The notes beneath the pieces are model-generated. The model made no database searches, was not told the DNA's origin, and worked only from the letters and a program-made list of their open reading frames with translations. DNA of 64,000 nt from contig CAKOTA010000005.1 in assembly GCA_934119965.1 (NCBI GenBank), positions 12,939 to 76,938 of the forward strand, given 5' to 3'. Position numbers and translations under genes: made by a program. This document shows, piece by piece, positions 47,047-58,324 of this stretch. Source of the DNA: an uncultured Bacilli bacterium. Its GTDB lineage: Bacteria > Bacillota_I > Bacilli_A > RF39 > UBA660. Numbering within the stretch: position 1 is the first letter of the stretch; each line of letters begins with the position of its first letter.

Positions 47047-47093
47047 TATATGAAAAAAAATAGTTAATTAAAACTATTTTAAATCATAATTTA
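47047..47093. repeat. 47-bp direct repeat copy 1 (duplicate of aminopeptidase 3' end + bidirectional terminator)
   Basis: This sequence is identical to 47490-47536. It contains the hairpin AATAGTT-AATTAA-AACTATT flanked by A8 and a T-rich tract. Confidence 0.7.
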
Positions 47094-47139
47094 TATCTTT
47101 AATTTTTATACAATTAAATTTATAAAATAAATTAATTAA

Positions 47140-47151
47140 GAACATATGTTC
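47140..47151 (+). promoter_or_regulatory. Cheo-box (Firmicute LexA operator) GAACATATGTTC within promoter of toxin-like peptide gene
   Basis: The sequence is a perfect GAAC-N4-GTTC palindrome (AGAACATATGTTCT). It lies immediately upstream of the extended -10 TGGTATAAT at 47152-47160. Confidence 0.55.
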
Positions 47152-47214
47152 TGGTATAATTAACTTAGGAATATTTTAACAGTTGAGTGCTCGCCTCCGA
47201 AAGGAGGTGGTGAA

Positions 47215-47289
47215 ATGACTAAGAAAGATTTTTTAATCTTTGCTCTAATCATTATCATCATTCTACTTATACTTCTATTATTCAAGTGA
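47215..47289 (+). CDS. 24-aa hydrophobic type-I-toxin-like peptide
   Basis: The product is MTKKDFLIFALIIIIILLILLLFK. Its SD GGAGG is sequestered in the hairpin CCUCC-GAAA-GGAGG at 47196-47209, and the ATG lies 6 nt after it. The 5' AGTTGAGTGC is complementary to the 3' flank AGCACTCAAT. Confidence 0.5.
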   Translation: MTKKDFLIFALIIIIILLILLLFK

Positions 47290-47300
47290 TAATGAATTAT

Positions 47301-47406
47301 AAAAAAAAGCACTCAATCTAACAAGATTAAGTGCGTAACCAATTGGCAAGTACTCAACTTTGCGATGTTAAGTATTCCTTTTTTATATTATGCAAGTTTC
47401 CTTGAT
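47301..47406 (-). ncRNA. Convergent antisense small RNA (candidate antitoxin) overlapping the peptide mRNA 3' region
   Basis: The minus-strand promoter is TTGTCA (47436-47441), a 17-nt spacer and TACTAT (47413-47418). The intrinsic terminator GCACUUAAUCU-UGUU-AGAUUGAGUGC plus U8 ends at ~47301, 12 nt after the peptide stop. Confidence 0.4.
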
Positions 47407-47489
47407 ATATCCATAGTAACACAAAAAATATTTTTTGACAAGTTTTCTATTTTGATGATATCAATATAATACCTACTTTAAGAAATTAT

Positions 47490-47536
47490 TATATGAAAAA
47501 AAATAGTTAATTAAAACTATTTTAAATCATAATTTA
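47490..47536. repeat. 47-bp direct repeat copy 2 (native aminopeptidase stop + terminator)
   Basis: This copy is identical to 47047-47093. It contains the TAG stop of the aminopeptidase gene at 47517-47519. Confidence 0.7.
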
Positions 47537-54039: not shown

Positions 54040-54948
54040 TTATCGCCTCAAACTTCCTCCAGACACTTCATAAGCGTCTGTTACTAAGAAAAATGCTTTA
54101 GGATCTATTCCTAAGATTCCTTCTTTAGCTAAAAAATAATCTTTTGTTGGTATAATACACATTATTACTTTTTGATGATTACCAGTATAACCACCACGAC
54201 CATCTAATACCGTAACCCCTTGACTTAAATGTTCCATTATAAATTTTTTAACTGATGTTTCGTGTTCAGTAACAATATAAAATGCTTTACATTGAGATAT
54301 TCCTAATATTACTTTATCAGCCATTAAACTTATTATATATAATACTATTACAGCATACATTACATTTTCCCAAGCATAAACATTATTATTTAGAAAAAAT
54401 CCTGCGGCTAAAACTATAATACCATCAGACATCAACATTGATTTTCCAATAGATACTTTTCCATATTTCGCAATTATTTGATTTATTATGTCAGTACCAC
54501 CTGTTGAAAACCCAGATTTAAAATTAGTTCCTGATCCTAATCCTGCAATTACGGCTCCAAATACAACTATTAAAATCATATTATCAATATTAAAATTAAT
54601 ATATTCACCCAAATTAGCAGTTAATTTAATACATAATGGATACATTATTGAACCAGCAATTGATCCTTTTGTTTTTTCCCAGCCTAATGTAAAATAACTC
54701 AATATTAATAATAACATTGAAACTATGAATACAAATAGTGAGGTATCTATTCCAAATAGTTTATTAACAACAATAGCAATACCTGATACACCACCATAGA
54801 CAATACTACGAGGTAAGAAAAATACATTGAAGGCAATTGAAACTAATAAACACCCAATAAATAGTGTAAAGTATCTTTTAATTTTATTTTTATTATATAT
54901 TTTTTCAATTATTTCATCTAATTTTTCTTTTTTCTTAAAAATACTCAT
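54040..54948 (-). CDS. YitT family membrane protein (DUF161 + DUF2179)
   Basis: A polytopic N-terminal domain and a C-terminal DUF2179-like region are present. The length is 302 aa. Confidence 0.65.
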   Translation of the reverse strand: MSIFKKKEKLDEIIEKIYNKNKIKRYFTLFIGCLLVSIAFNVFFLPRSIVYGGVSGIAIVVNKLFGIDTSLFVFIVSMLLLILSYFTLGWEKTKGSIAGSIMYPLCIKLTANLGEYINFNIDNMILIVVFGAVIAGLGSGTNFKSGFSTGGTDIINQIIAKYGKVSIGKSMLMSDGIIVLAAGFFLNNNVYAWENVMYAVIVLYIISLMADKVILGISQCKAFYIVTEHETSVKKFIMEHLSQGVTVLDGRGGYTGNHQKVIMCIIPTKDYFLAKEGILGIDPKAFFLVTDAYEVSGGSLRR

Positions 54949-56049
54949 TTTGTTTTTCCTTTCAAATTATCATTTATAAATTTATCAATTTCTCCATCTA
55001 ATACTTTTACAACATTAGTTTCTTCAGTATTTGTTCTATGGTCTTTTACTAATGAATATGGATGCATTACATAGCTCCTGATTTGTGATCCAAAATTAAT
55101 ATCTGATAAATTACCTTTTATATCCATTAGTTCTTTATTTCTTTTTTCTAATTCTAAGTTATATAGTTTATTTTTTAGTACTTCCATAGCTGTTTCTTTG
55201 TTTTGAATTTGACTTCTTTCATTTTGACAAGTAACTACTATTTTAGTAGGTAAATGGGTTATTCTAACTGCCGAATCAGTTGTATTTACTCCTTGTCCAC
55301 CTTTACCACTACTTCTATATACATCTATTCTTAAATCTGCTTCATTTATTTCTATATCAATATTTTCTTTTTCAAATAATGGTGTTACATCAACTGAAGC
55401 AAATGAAGTATGTCTTCTTGAGTTAGAATCAAATGGTGATATTCTAACTAGTCTATGAACTCCTTTTTCATTTTTTAAATATCCATAAGCATTAATTCCT
55501 TTTACTATCAATGTTATACTCTTTATTCCAGCTTCATCACCATATTCGCAATCAATGACATCTACTTTATATTTCTTTTTATTACACCATCTGTCATACA
55601 TTCTATATAACATATTTACCCAGTCGCAAGCTTCTGTTCCGCCAGCCCCAGAATGTAGTTCTAAAACAGCATCTAACTTATCATATGGTCCATTTAATAA
55701 TATTTCAATTTCTAGATCTTGAATAGTTTCATTTATTTCATTAACATCATTTTCAATTAATGATTTTAATTCATCATCATTAGAATCTTTTAATTCTTTT
55801 ATTATTTCAAAATTATCATTGATTTTTTGTTTTAAAGTTTCAACTTTTTCTACTTTATTTTTTAAATCGTTCAATTCATTTATTATTTTTTCGCTTAATC
55901 TTTTATCATTCCAAAAATTAGGTTCATTCATTTTTTCTTCTAATTCTTTTATTCTAATTTTTTTCTTGTCTGGTTCAAAGAGCCCTCCATAATTCTTCAA
56001 TTCTATTAGAATAATTCAAATATGTGTTATAAAGTTCATTTAATTCCAT
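54945..56049 (-). CDS. prfB: Peptide chain release factor 2 (requires programmed +1 frameshift)
   Basis: The SPF motif (RISPFDSNSRRHTSF) and GGQ motif (GKGGQGVNTTDSAVRITH) are present. Frame 0 runs from the ATG at 56049 (RBS AGGAGG) as MELNELYNTYLNYSNRIEELWRAL then meets TGA. The +1 frame continues as FEPDKKK, matching the track ORF. Confidence 0.85.
55985..55990 (-). other. prfB +1 programmed frameshift site CTT TGA A with upstream internal SD GGAGGG
   Basis: The minus-strand sequence is TGG AGG GCT CTT TGA ACC. This is the classic RF2 autoregulatory shift site, with an SD-like element 3 nt upstream of the CUU. Confidence 0.8.
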
Positions 56050-56212
56050 TTTATAACCTCCTACTCTTATTAATTATAACATTTTATAGATAAAAAAAAA
56101 AGAATTTTTATGATAAAAATTCTTACTATAAATATATTTATTAAATAAATTTTATTATTATTCGACAAATTATAATATTTACTTTTTTATATTGATGTGT
56201 TATTATGTATAT

Positions 56213-56317
56213 AGATGAGTTATCGCTCATATAATAAAAGGGAACATTCATTATGAATGTCTACCTATATTTGGTGAGACATTTAAGTCATCGACTTAAG
56301 TGTCATTTTTTTATTAC
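56213..56317 (+). ncRNA. Candidate small RNA (copy 1), antisense to the 3' end of a toxin-like ORF
   Basis: The -35 TTTACT is at 56178-56183 and the -10 TATTAT at 56201-56206. The terminator GACAUUUAAGUC-AUC-GACUUAAGUGUC plus U7 sits at 56277-56317. Confidence 0.4.
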
Positions 56318-56395
56318 TAAAACCAATATTATTAGTTGTAATAAAATAAAGGAGAAAGAAGAAAGTATTTTTAAATAAAACTCTCTTTTTTTCAT
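56303..56395 (-). CDS. 30-aa hydrophobic type-I-toxin-like peptide (present only in copy 1)
   Basis: The product is MKKREFYLKILSSFSFILLQLIILVLVIKK. RBS GGAGG lies 7 nt upstream of the ATG at 56395. The stop overlaps the plus-strand sRNA terminator. In copy 2 the RBS and ATG are replaced (…AATATTAAAAGAAGAG…). Confidence 0.4.
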   Translation of the reverse strand: MKKREFYLKILSSFSFILLQLIILVLVIKK

Positions 56396-56493
56396 CTTTA
56401 AACCTCCTTTCTTTTTTTAGATAAGAGGTAGACACCCATTAAATGTTCCATTTTATATTTTATAATATTTAAAACAAAAAGTAATTATTTTTC

Positions 56494-56745
56494 GTTCGAC
56501 AAAATTAGACATAGTTATAATATTTACTTTTTTTTATTGGTGTGTTACTATGTATATAGATGAGTTATTGCTCATATAATAAAAAAGGAACATTCATTAT
56601 GAATGTCTACCAAAATTTGACTAGACATTTAAGTCATCGACTTAAGTGTCATTTTTTTATTACTAAAACTAATATTATTAGCTGTAATAAAATAAAGGAG
56701 AAAGAAAAAAGTATTTTTAAATAAAACTCTCTTTTCTCTTCTTTT
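56494..56745. repeat. Tandem duplication unit, copy 2
   Basis: This is a direct repeat of 56161-56400 with a ~10-nt insertion near its start and substitutions that remove the minus-strand RBS/ATG. Confidence 0.6.
56558..56657 (+). ncRNA. Candidate small RNA (copy 2)
   Basis: The -35 TTTACT is at 56523-56528, the -10 TACTAT at 56546-56551, and the same terminator hairpin plus T7 ends at ~56657. Confidence 0.35.
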
Positions 56746-56822
56746 AATATTCTTTTTCGATTAAGAAATAGTGTTTTATAGCAAAAAAAGAATCTATTAT
56801 TTTTATTATATTGCTTATAATT

Positions 56823-57260
56823 TTATATTTTTTTTCTTAAGATAGTTGTAAAATTTAAAAAATTATTATTTTTATACAAATTTATTGCATTTTGATTTTT
56901 ATCAAATGCTTGCACATCAATAAATTTTACATTTCGAGATTTTAGCTCTAATTCCATCTTTTTTAGAAGTTCAGTAGCTATTCCTTGTTTTCGGTATTCT
57001 TTATTAACATATAAGAAATTAATTTTTGCGATATTATTTATATTAATATCTCTCTTGATAATGCTTGAATATATAAACCCACATATCATATTGTTTTTTT
57101 CAAATACAAAAATGATAATATTTTCATCCAAACCGTATGATAAACTTTTAAATTTGAATTTTTTATTATAATTTTCATCATACTTTGCCTCTTCAAAAAG
57201 AAATTTTTTAAATAAATAATCAAGTTCAATAAAATCTCTATTCTCTGCTTTTCTTATCAT
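56823..57260 (-). CDS. GNAT family N-acetyltransferase
   Basis: The acetyl-CoA binding motif RKQGIATELLKKME is present. The length is 145 aa. Confidence 0.75.
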   Translation of the reverse strand: MIRKAENRDFIELDYLFKKFLFEEAKYDENYNKKFKFKSLSYGLDENIIIFVFEKNNMICGFIYSSIIKRDININNIAKINFLYVNKEYRKQGIATELLKKMELELKSRNVKFIDVQAFDKNQNAINLYKNNNFLNFTTILRKKI

Positions 57261-57303
57261 ATTTTAGTTTCTCTTTTTTATTACTTTATAATATATTCAA
57301 ATT

Positions 57304-57579
57304 TTATTCTTTTTCTAAAATAAAATATTTACAATCATAAGCACAATTATTTCTTAAATAATCTTTTCTTTTTTCAAAATCATTTATTTCTTTATATAGT
57401 TTATTTTCTTTCTTACAAAAACCCTTTAGTCTTAATTTGCCATAGGCCCAATCACCTAATACATAATCATAATCATAAAAATAATCAGTTAATTTATTTT
57501 CTACTTCTTCTTGATCAAATCCATCCTTATAATTTGTAATTAAGTTATATTTAATATCATTTATTACAACCATTTTCAT
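57304..57579 (-). CDS. yutD: YutD-like protein (DUF1027)
   Basis: The product VVINDIKYNLITNYKDGFDQEE...YDYVLGDWAYGKLRLKGF resembles B. subtilis YutD. The true start is the ATG at 57579 with RBS AGGTGAT. Confidence 0.6.
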   Translation of the reverse strand: MKMVVINDIKYNLITNYKDGFDQEEVENKLTDYFYDYDYVLGDWAYGKLRLKGFCKKENKLYKEINDFEKRKDYLRNNCAYDCKYFILEKE

Positions 57580-57610
57580 TATATCACCTATTAAAATTAT
57601 AACATATTTT

Positions 57611-58324
57611 TTAACTTGAAGAAAGTGTATATGGGTTAAAATAGTATCCTGGAACTGTTCCATTTATAATTTTTATTGATATTGGCACTACTGTTTCTAC
57701 TTGAATTTGTTTTGTATCAAATGGTAGTATTACTTGTTCTTCAGCTATTATTTTTACCCCTAATTCAATTACAGCATTATTAATTCCATACTCTTTTATA
57801 TCTGTTACTATATCGGTTGTTATATCACCAATTAAACTCAATTTGACTGGTATTTTGGGTCCTAAATTAGCAAGCAATCCATTATTAAATATAATTCCTG
57901 ATGGTACTTGATAAATAATGCCACTCTTCAATTTTTCTGAATTAACATTAATATTTTCATTATCGGATAACCCAATATCTCCTAATTCACCCTTCTCTAA
58001 TTTTCTTAAATATTCTTTAACATTTATACTAACTTCTTTTAAAATATTATTAATCTCATATGTATTATAATTTGTTTCTTTTCCATCAGTTATAAATAAA
58101 TTATCACTTTTAAATTTTTCACCTAACTCATTATCAATAGCATTTCCGATTACTAAAACTGCTATTTTTTTTGCCTGTTTTTCAGCATAATTCATTATAA
58201 TTGGAGTTAACTTTTTTCCTATAAAATTAAACACTACAAATAATGTAATTATAATCATTACAATTAATAAAATTATAACATTGTGATTTTTGTTTTTTTT
58301 CTTTTTTAGTTTTATCTTTCTCAT
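57611..58324 (-). CDS. Sporulation protein YunB-like
   Basis: An N-terminal TM anchor is followed by a ~200-aa domain with a YunB-like pattern (AEKQAKKIAVLVIGNAIDNEL...). The length is 237 aa. Confidence 0.45.
   Translation of the reverse strand: MRKIKLKKKKNKNHNVIILLIVMIIITLFVVFNFIGKKLTPIIMNYAEKQAKKIAVLVIGNAIDNELGEKFKSDNLFITDGKETNYNTYEINNILKEVSINVKEYLRKLEKGELGDIGLSDNENINVNSEKLKSGIIYQVPSGIIFNNGLLANLGPKIPVKLSLIGDITTDIVTDIKEYGINNAVIELGVKIIAEEQVILPFDTKQIQVETVVPISIKIINGTVPGYYFNPYTLSSS

Follow-up and report, generated by a model that had tools for sequence, protein, structure and literature searches.

A putative type I toxin-antitoxin family with a convergent antisense RNA, found upstream of prfB in an uncultured Bacilli bacterium

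Toxin-antitoxin (TA) systems of type I, which reviews place only in Proteobacteria, Firmicutes and (in one review) Tenericutes, are hard to find by homology. In the Gram-positive families the antisense RNA is situated at the 3' side, where it overlaps the toxin mRNA (PMC8594479; PMC6562991). In bsrE/SR5, bsrG/SR4 and txpA/RatA the two RNAs form a 3'-3' duplex that is cut by RNase III, and the Shine-Dalgarno (SD) sequence is partly sequestered (PMC6562991). In RNA I of par, the 5'-SL element hides the SD sequence and the 5'-UH element hides the extreme 5' end; the toxin Fst has a PXXXG motif in its transmembrane (TM) helix and a charged C-terminal tail (PMC7472228). In hok/Sok of plasmid R1 and aapA1/IsoA1 of Helicobacter pylori, the full-length toxin mRNA is locked by long-distance 5'-3' pairing (PMC6733600; PMC8594479). 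Finally, type I systems are known in which toxin open reading frames (ORFs) have been exchanged between conserved regulatory flanks (review). Here we describe a module composed of a gene for a 30-residue hydrophobic peptide and a convergent small RNA (sRNA) gene, which is present in one intact and one decayed copy between prfB and yutD on contig CAKOTA010000005.1 of an uncultured Bacilli bacterium (assembly GCA_934119965.1, positions 12,939 to 76,938). This stretch of 64,000 nucleotides, referred to as the window, has a G+C content of 24%. Comparison with homologous loci suggests that the module probably represents an antisense-controlled toxic membrane peptide, i.e. a chromosomal, type I TA-like system of an undescribed family.

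Conservation of the peptide gene and the convergent sRNA gene

The putative toxin gene of copy 1 (minus strand, 56303-56395), which was recognised as an ORF conserved in the family, encodes a peptide of 30 amino acids (MKKREFYLKILSSFSFILLQLIILVLVIKK) with a basic N-terminus, a single hydrophobic helix and a C-terminal Lys-Lys. It is preceded by the SD sequence GGAGG at 56403-56407. Facing it on the plus strand is the gene of a predicted antitoxin, sRNA 1, an RNA of about 100 nt (56213-56312) that was delimited by folding, terminator scan and conservation. The corresponding promoter was predicted at 56178-56206 (-35 box TTTACT, 17-nt spacer, TG-extended -10 box TATTAT), which is the position of the family consensus TTGACA-17-TATTAT. 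The RNA consists of hairpin H1 (56215-56230), an A-rich linker, hairpin H2 (56239-56266) and a terminator (56278-56304) followed by T7. The ends of both the sRNA and the toxin mRNA were inferred from promoter and terminator consensus. The toxin stop codon TGA (56303-56305) overlaps the final two bases of the terminator stem of sRNA 1. Further, the codons of the C-terminal lysines (AAAAAA, approximately 56306-56312) are the complement of the terminator U-tract; the predicted toxin C-terminus and antitoxin terminator constrain each other, and this end of the peptide is under a double constraint. The promoters, hairpins, U7 terminators, 30-aa ORF and GGAGG sequence had all been listed in a preliminary description, and each was recovered at the same position.

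A spurious 54-aa plus-strand ORF over copy 2 served as entry query and retrieved entry P0001 on a contig of 537 nt (L030). This contig carries a diverged module with the same parts: 19 of the 30 toxin residues (MKKREYNIKLLRYISLILLLLTLLVLVIKK) are identical, the sRNA promoter reads TTGACA-17-TATTCT, and the stems of H1 and H2 are kept with changed bases. A single metagenome scan with a 24-nt exact pattern over the terminator (TTAAGTCNNNGACTTAAGTGTCAT) yielded 44 further metagenome loci, all with a G+C content of 19-31%, in addition to L030, L002 and L025. With an nhmmer profile of the unit, tandem arrays were detected in L030, L047 and L053, and three copies in L048. The array in L047 (311-1478 of a 1.5-kb contig) comprises three modules and mixes subfamilies, with toxins of 31, 27 and 30 aa; subfamily B, which includes module 3 of the window (see below), has toxins of 24-27 aa. 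The modules are located next to housekeeping genes, e.g. rpsB, obg, pyk and dut and the gene for RNase J (judged from sequence), and neither family DNA nor its consensus had a match in phage, plasmid and viral contig collections. The nearest named relative is Candidatus Faecisoma, which NCBI files under Mycoplasmatota.

Counts of coding sequences (CDS) and of decayed copies were taken among 49 units. They contain 32 distinct homologous CDS, all of which are open for 30 or 31 codons behind a GGAGG-type SD sequence with invariant SD-to-start geometry. The 30 different peptides encoded by them are devoid of Pro and Gly. The pN/pS ratio was 0.48 in the toxin frame, the lowest value of all six frames (0.63-1.69 in the other five), and variability at the three codon positions was 0.34, 0.21 and 0.43, i.e. 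lowest at the second and highest at the third position. Conservation of the peptide, on which the preliminary description had made its proposal depend, is thus seen at the level of the coding sequence in 32 distinct versions. No coding signal (pN/pS, codon position) was present in the frame of the plus-strand ORFs of 41 aa (56253-56378) and 54 aa (56560-56724), which both cross a terminator and are regarded as spurious; gene callers do report such ORFs, an example being P0001 in L030.

Searches of Pfam-A and NCBIfam (hmmscan, E up to 10) with twelve submissions, corresponding to eleven distinct peptides of which one was submitted in two lengths, returned only insignificant TM-like matches. Exact peptide look-up, tblastn against plasmids and a full-text literature search for the peptide strings gave no match, and a weak blastn match in L007 was discarded as the TM segment of YunB.

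The plus-strand RNAs of copies 1 and 2 (approximately 107 nt) fold into H1, H2 and terminator with z values of -4.35 and -4.42, respectively, and their stability was equalled by none of 200 shuffles. Each copy has a terminator with a 12-bp stem and T7 (two found versus 0.0 expected from shuffles), and a 47-nt stretch over terminator and stop codon is identical between them. H2 and terminator are conserved and nearly invariant in 39 homologues. H1, which lies outside the predicted overlap with the toxin mRNA, is present in about 33 of 38 sequences and is formed by at least seven different stem sequences (ATGAG/CTCAT, ATGAAG/CTTCAT, GCAAG/CTTGC, GTAAG/CTTAC, TCAAG/CTTGA and GCAAAAG/CTTTTGC, among others), several of which rely on G-U pairs that are possible only on the plus strand. 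That the H1 stems are kept through different sequences supports the antisense sRNA that had been postulated. A further hairpin between H2 and the terminator (H3), plausible by eye, was dropped as its prediction was inconsistent. In Rfam 15, the region 55000-58000 gave only chance matches to plastid psbA and miRNAs at E values up to 10, and when the entire window was scanned at gathering score, one tRNA and no antitoxin family came up.

Decay of the two genes is asymmetric. About 12 units keep the sRNA and have a truncated or broken toxin gene (copy 2 of the window, L025, L033, L037, L039, L049, L053, L057, L064, L067, L071 and L072), and L048 and L051 each hold a unit in which parts of both genes are lost. 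A toxin-only unit was not found, and H2 and terminator are kept in all 31 assessable units with an intact toxin. The search pattern spans the stop codon as well as the terminator; since it includes the stop codon, toxin-only units were findable. Asymmetric decay of this kind is a prediction of the proposed toxin-antitoxin relationship. The conserved coding frame, the sRNA structures and the decay asymmetry together support a type I TA system, and the conservation of peptide, promoter, H2 and terminator lends weight to the 3'-convergent antisense RNA proposed in the preliminary description.

Predicted structure of the toxin mRNA

The toxin promoter was predicted from the sequence and the family alignment at 56457-56485 on the minus strand (-10 box TAAAAT, 56462-56457; -35 box ATTACT, 56485-56480); the family consensus is TTGATT-17-TATATT, of which copy 1 has a weak version. 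The 5' untranslated region (5'UTR; 56396-56449) begins with the predicted 5' end GGAACAUUU at 56449, which is conserved in the family and whose start site was placed by promoter spacing. It continues with an H2-like segment and an anti-SD sequence, ACCUC, which pairs with the SD sequence GGAGG in minimum free energy (MFE) folds. The 5' end (GGAACAUUU...GUGUCUACC) is an inverted copy of the sRNA H2 region with 82% identity over 33 nt and is therefore complementary to the mRNA's own 3' end. The latter is predicted at 56234-56266 from the inverted repeat, MFE folds and pair counts, and consists of the H2 complement and a U-run: on the minus strand, the conserved A-run that immediately precedes H2 becomes a U-run behind the H2 complement. 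This arrangement looks like a terminator belonging to the toxin mRNA itself. With such a terminator the two transcripts would overlap by about 75 nt, comprising H2 and the sRNA terminator. A 3' overlap at the terminator had been noted before; the overlap as such stands, and it is predicted to be wider than previously described as it includes H2.

In all 24 mRNAs that were folded, the MFE structure is a panhandle: of the 30 nt at the 5' end, 19-28 are paired with the last 50 nt, and the hairpin of anti-SD and SD sequence is stacked beside the panhandle helix. These mRNAs include module 3 and subfamily B, which differ at many of the positions concerned. In copy 1 the 3' arm of the panhandle lies in 56234-56266 and its partner at 56425-56449. 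RNAalifold found the same helix of 25-26 bp on alignments. In alignment A3, pairing is seen in 98.5% of the cells, with double changes in 8 of 25 pairs; none of 500 shuffles came up to this, and partner columns that had been slid were 31-45% paired. After addition of three sequences (two of subfamily B and one main-type copy from L048; alignment A4) double changes were seen in 15 of 26 pairs. Compensatory changes of this kind lend support to the panhandle helix.

RNAalifold also paired the SD sequence (columns 50-54 of A3) with a CUCCU-type stretch inside the ORF (columns 123-127), which corresponds in the window to pairing of approximately 56403-56407 with 56340-56344. In A4 the partner of the SD sequence moves to a nearby U-rich stretch, via G-U pairs. 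The CUCCU stretch in the ORF could be a second anti-SD sequence that forms a metastable alternative to the one in the 5'UTR.

Duplex energies between the 5' domain of the sRNA and the 5' part of the toxin mRNA were no better than those of shuffles in 19 modules (mean z -0.37), and the best duplex sites were inconsistent among them. Pairing of Fst or SprA1 type between the 5' domain of the sRNA and the region of toxin initiation found no support.

Genomic context and history of the module

In the window, prfB (54945-56049) and a YutD-like gene (57304-57663), both on the minus strand, are separated by the two related units and by GNAT145, a gene for a GNAT acetyltransferase (56823-57260, minus strand). 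Copy 1 (approximately 56162-56410) and copy 2 (approximately 56496-56756) both have the sRNA on the plus strand; the minus strand carries the toxin ORF in copy 1 and a toxin remnant in copy 2. The copies lie 345-346 nt apart and are 90.5% identical across 253 nt (blastn E 2.7e-95). The common stretch amounts to about 250 nt, and the approximately 95 nt that follow each copy are mutually unrelated. Of the tandem units of approximately 330 bp and 90% identity reported previously, the identity is confirmed and the period is corrected to about 346 nt. An independent assembly (L025) matches 56425-57700 at 99.7% in one block that covers the copy-1 5'UTR, copy 2, GNAT145 and yutD; this continuous match means that the tandem arrangement is real and no assembly artefact. 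Ten contigs from other samples, retrieved via yutD, carry the yutD and GNAT145 of the window, and nine of these ten short-read contigs (L001, L021-L029) stop inside or just before copy 2, with ends at window positions 56671-56895. The repeat thus breaks short-read assemblies at the prfB-yutD locus. The ancestral yutD terminator (hairpin and T10, 56090-56125 on the minus strand), recognised from the sequence and conserved in L003, which has no module, adjoins the upstream side of the prfB promoter (TGTTATAAT near 56070) and is the prfB-side edge of the inserted region. Finally, prfB has a programmed +1 frameshift site, CTT TGA preceded by GGAGGG (regions 55975-56049 and 54945-56000), which implies that UGA is a stop codon in this organism. 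It is read as stop although the nearest named relative is filed under Mycoplasmatota.

Relatives of the locus were collected through prfB. In L003 and L004 (95% and 79% prfB identity) yutD is located directly upstream of prfB without a module, and the intergenic regions measure 175 nt and about 75 nt, respectively. One unit with an intact toxin is present in L002 (99% prfB identity). There, a 1.68-kb insert with CCTTTC at both sides (L002 1910-3600) parts SD sequence and ORF from 5'UTR and promoter, which now adjoin yutD. Besides a 198-aa GNAT gene, the insert carries a 67-aa ORF and a G+C-rich patch; no tRNA was found in it. The toxin gene of L002 may now be co-transcribed with the GNAT gene, and the two strains have different GNAT genes at the equivalent position. 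L044 has the same yutD and an intact module in which 5'UTR, promoter and sRNA are near-identical and the toxin ORF is very different. When L044 2318-2660 is aligned with window 56178-56510, its toxin ORF (MKIKTFIIKVLNLIAINLLLLSLLIVIIKK) is seen between nearly the same flanks, and it looks as if the ORF had been swapped between conserved regulatory flanks.

A module of 94% identity lies between unrelated genes in L032. Over the core 210 nt, copies 1 and 2 share 93.3% identity with each other and either shares 93.9% with L032, while their identities with L002 are 89.2 and 92.5%; the differences are mosaic. As the copies are no closer to each other than to L032 or L002, a recent in-situ duplication did not take place, and the local tandem duplication of the preliminary description does not hold as a recent event. 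Comparison of the prfB upstream region in relatives, which had been suggested there, shows the module to be absent from L003 and L004 and rearranged in L002 and L044. Judging by these sequences, the module is accessory and the prfB-yutD intergenic region is a recombination-prone hot spot.

In copy 2, the toxin pseudogene (56649-56738, minus strand) retains codons 4-30 and the stop codon, and start, SD sequence, 5'UTR and promoter are replaced (GGAGG by AGAAT, ATG by GAA). The nhmmer match of this copy is accordingly restricted to model positions 10-236. Codons 4-30 differ from those of copy 1 by two synonymous changes and one non-synonymous change. The gene of sRNA 2, a predicted orphan antitoxin (56558-56658, plus strand), has H1, H2 and terminator (56624-56650 plus T7) intact, and its promoter (56523-56551; TTTACT-17-TACTAT, TG-extended) was read from the sequence in alignment with copy 1. 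That copy 2 had lost SD sequence and ATG and kept its sRNA had been observed previously, and sRNA-only units turn out to be common in the family. Since sRNA 2 and sRNA 1 show few differences over the overlap region of about 78 nt, neutralisation of toxin 1 in trans is still possible, and sRNA 2 could act in this way as an orphan antitoxin.

A third, divergent module (47139-47444; nhmmer 58 bits, E 1.3e-16) is found at a distance of 9 kb, flanked by ORFs of 268 and 377 aa, in the opposite orientation with the sRNA on the minus and the toxin on the plus strand. Its sRNA gene (47301-47441, minus strand) comprises the promoter TTGTCA-17-TACTAT (47441-47413), H1 (CAAG-GAAA-CTTG), H2 and the terminator 47334-47309 followed by T8. 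The 5' part of its toxin mRNA (47168-47289, plus strand; 5' end at 47168 according to sequence and MFE fold) contains a 24-aa ORF (MTKKDFLIFALIIIIILLILLLFK, 47215-47289, plus strand) and is preceded by a promoter with an extended -10 box (TGGTATAAT). The SD sequence GGAGG (47203-47207) is part of a CGCCUCC-GAAA-GGAGGUG hairpin with perfect pairing. In the MFE fold, all but four of the initial 30 nt (26 of 30) are paired with the 3' end. Module 3 is flanked by a perfect 47-nt direct repeat (47047-47093 and 47490-47536), which is made up of the final codons of the 377-aa gene together with its terminator and resembles a scar left by a recent insertion. Flanking direct repeats were rejected as a general signature of insertion, as they occur in only two to three of 25 modules; one of them, in L031, measures 38 nt.

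Proposed mode of action, alternatives and comparison with known systems

The arrangement of the module suggests the following mode of action. Transcription from a weak minus-strand promoter would give an mRNA of about 215 nt that encodes the 30-residue peptide, and a stronger, TG-extended plus-strand promoter would serve the convergent sRNA of about 100 nt. At the 3' ends the transcripts would share an overlap of about 75 nt, a region with the toxin stop and last codons, the sRNA terminator and H2. The toxin mRNA would be born inert, with its SD sequence in the local anti-SD hairpin and its first 28 nt or so paired with the last 35 or so in the panhandle, which would hide the mRNA 5' end. The sRNA would pair with the 3' region of the mRNA, probably starting at the complementary terminator or H2 loops, and the long perfect duplex would be cleaved by RNase III such that the toxin mRNA is removed. 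Upon loss of the sRNA, translation of the stable mRNA would produce the peptide, which would then damage the membrane.

More tentatively, and as a possibility rather than a probability, we propose that the sRNA and the mRNA 5' end compete for the same 3' segment, in which case antitoxin binding would both recruit RNase III and open the protective panhandle. With the same reserve, the module would join the Gram-positive 3'-overlap layout to a hok-like 5'-3' lock, and would found a type I TA family encountered up to now only in uncultured Candidatus Faecisoma relatives with 19-31% G+C. Orphans that retain only the sRNA, such as copy 2, may act as anti-addiction elements, and toxin ORFs may be exchanged between conserved regulatory flanks.

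Several observations weigh against these interpretations. The sequences behind the pN/pS ratios are short, AT-rich and related to one another. As the pattern used to collect the family is located within the sRNA terminator, the invariance of the latter is partly by construction. A phmmer search of 1.84 billion representatives revealed no relatives of the peptide, a result of little weight given that ORFs of 30 aa are rarely gene-called. The -35 box of the copy-1 toxin promoter (ATTACT) is poor. The H2-complement terminator is weak (7-8 bp, two G-C pairs) and went unrecognised in the terminator scan, and the toxin mRNA may instead run through to the yutD terminator. With regard to the panhandle, most double changes stem from a few divergent sequences (module 3, subfamily B and L045), and concerted evolution or gene conversion between the inverted-repeat arms could mimic RNA covariation. 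Finally, anatomy and conservation fit any antisense-regulated small membrane protein equally well.

The peptide might accordingly be a non-toxic membrane protein, such as a regulatory or accessory subunit, whose expression is merely tuned by the sRNA with no TA function, and the position of the modules in chromosomal housekeeping intergenic regions and not on plasmids or phages would agree with this. We nevertheless consider such a role unlikely in view of four traits: (i) modules occur in multiple and tandem copies, and their presence differs among close strains; (ii) decay is asymmetric, with frequent sRNA-only remnants and not one toxin-only unit observed; (iii) the SD sequence appears to be doubly sequestered in an mRNA with a predicted panhandle lock; (iv) the 1.68-kb insertion in L002 cuts the toxin off from its 5'UTR and promoter. 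These traits are typical of type I toxins and would be hard to explain for a harmless accessory protein.

A further alternative concerns sRNA 2 only. GNAT145 and the copy-2 toxin remnant share a strand (56739-57260), and the gene is the immediate upstream neighbour of the remnant, with 67 nt between its end and the start of the remnant homology. No minus-strand terminator was found in between, so that sRNA 2, with promoter, hairpins and terminator intact, would lie antisense to the GNAT145 mRNA at its 3' end and might have been taken over as its regulator. A GNAT gene, if a different one, also stands right upstream of the toxin ORF on the same strand in L002. We regard this proposal, which is drawn from position, as rather improbable; other orphan units have unrelated neighbours. 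It is compatible with a role of sRNA 2 as orphan antitoxin.

A non-functional repetitive element (MITE-like or decayed mobile DNA) with incidental ORF and hairpins is very improbable: a 33-nt inverted repeat does bracket the ORF, copies exist at many loci and two modules are flanked by long direct repeats (47 and 38 nt), but all 32 distinct versions have an open ORF that shows codon-position bias and an invariant SD-to-start geometry, both conserved promoters lie outside the inverted repeat, most copies lack flanking direct repeats above chance, and there is no associated transposase.

The locus gives access to a family that counts dozens of members on very G+C-poor metagenome contigs, from a lineage that had no cultured representatives among the genomes found. 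Natural variation in this family is sufficient for peptide, sRNA and mRNA fold to be defined by comparison alone, and new toxin and antitoxin RNA families would be added to Pfam, Rfam and T1TAdb. At about 340 nt, the module would offer a compact model for a 3'-binding antisense RNA acting on a 5'-3' locked toxin mRNA, and the plentiful orphan antitoxin genes are a natural data set on the decay of TA modules.

Among the known systems, no similarity in Pfam, NCBIfam or Rfam was found to TxpA/BsrG, BsrE/BsrH, YonT, SprA1 (PepA1) and SprG and their antitoxin RNAs. With Fst/RNAII (par) of Enterococcus faecalis the module has in common convergent transcription from facing promoters, a toxin of about 30 aa and chromosomal copies in core genomes (PMC7472228). 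An SD stem-loop and a 5'-end helix, predicted in 24 of 24 mRNAs, also recall 5'-SL and 5'-UH, a functional analogy for which no homology was shown. Unlike Fst, however, the peptides have neither a PXXXG motif, as Pro and Gly are lacking in all 30 of them, nor an acidic C-terminal tail. In par a bidirectional intrinsic terminator is shared and forms the only overlap of the two RNAs, whereas the module has two separate terminators (one of them predicted) and an overlap measuring about 75 nt. A T-run follows the terminator at 56278-56304 on the plus strand only, and the stem contains a C-A mismatch on the minus strand. The direct repeats DRa/DRb, which in par make the sRNA 5' end complementary to the region of toxin initiation, have no counterpart outside the overlap (mean z -0.37), the sRNA measures about 100 nt as compared with about 40 nt in par, and matches to the Pfam and NCBIfam profiles (E up to 10) or to Rfam are absent. 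With PXXXG motif, bidirectional terminator, DRa/DRb and profile matches all failing, membership in the Fst/par family was rejected as highly implausible.

In hok and aapA1, successive anti-SD elements, one of them inside the ORF, hold the mRNA untranslatable. The module has counterparts in the 25-26 bp panhandle and the candidate anti-SD sequence CUCCU in the ORF. Activation in the hok/Sok type is by 3' processing. The antisense RNA of these Gram-negative systems binds the 5' part of the mRNA and is located inside it, whereas the sRNA of the module is complementary to the 3' partner of the panhandle, and its H2, unlike anything in hok or aapA1, is a sequence paralogue of the mRNA 5' end.

Closest in mechanism, by analogy, would be bsrE/SR5, bsrG/SR4 and txpA/RatA of B. 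subtilis. Together with yonT/SR6, they resemble the module in that a gene for a small hydrophobic peptide faces a convergent sRNA transcribed from a promoter of its own, and in that pairing at the 3' ends reaches into the end of the ORF. The layout of TxpA/BsrG, BsrE/BsrH and YonT, in which the toxin stop and last codons lie under the sRNA terminator and U-tract (PMC8594479), is likewise found in the module. Differences concern the overlap, predicted at about 75 nt as compared with 100-140 bp in B. subtilis, the sRNA length of about 100 nt, and the hosts, i.e. uncultured organisms of very low G+C content as opposed to Bacillus prophages. Finally, and unlike in the B. subtilis systems, the 5' end of the module mRNA is predicted to pair with the very 3' segment that is the target of the sRNA.

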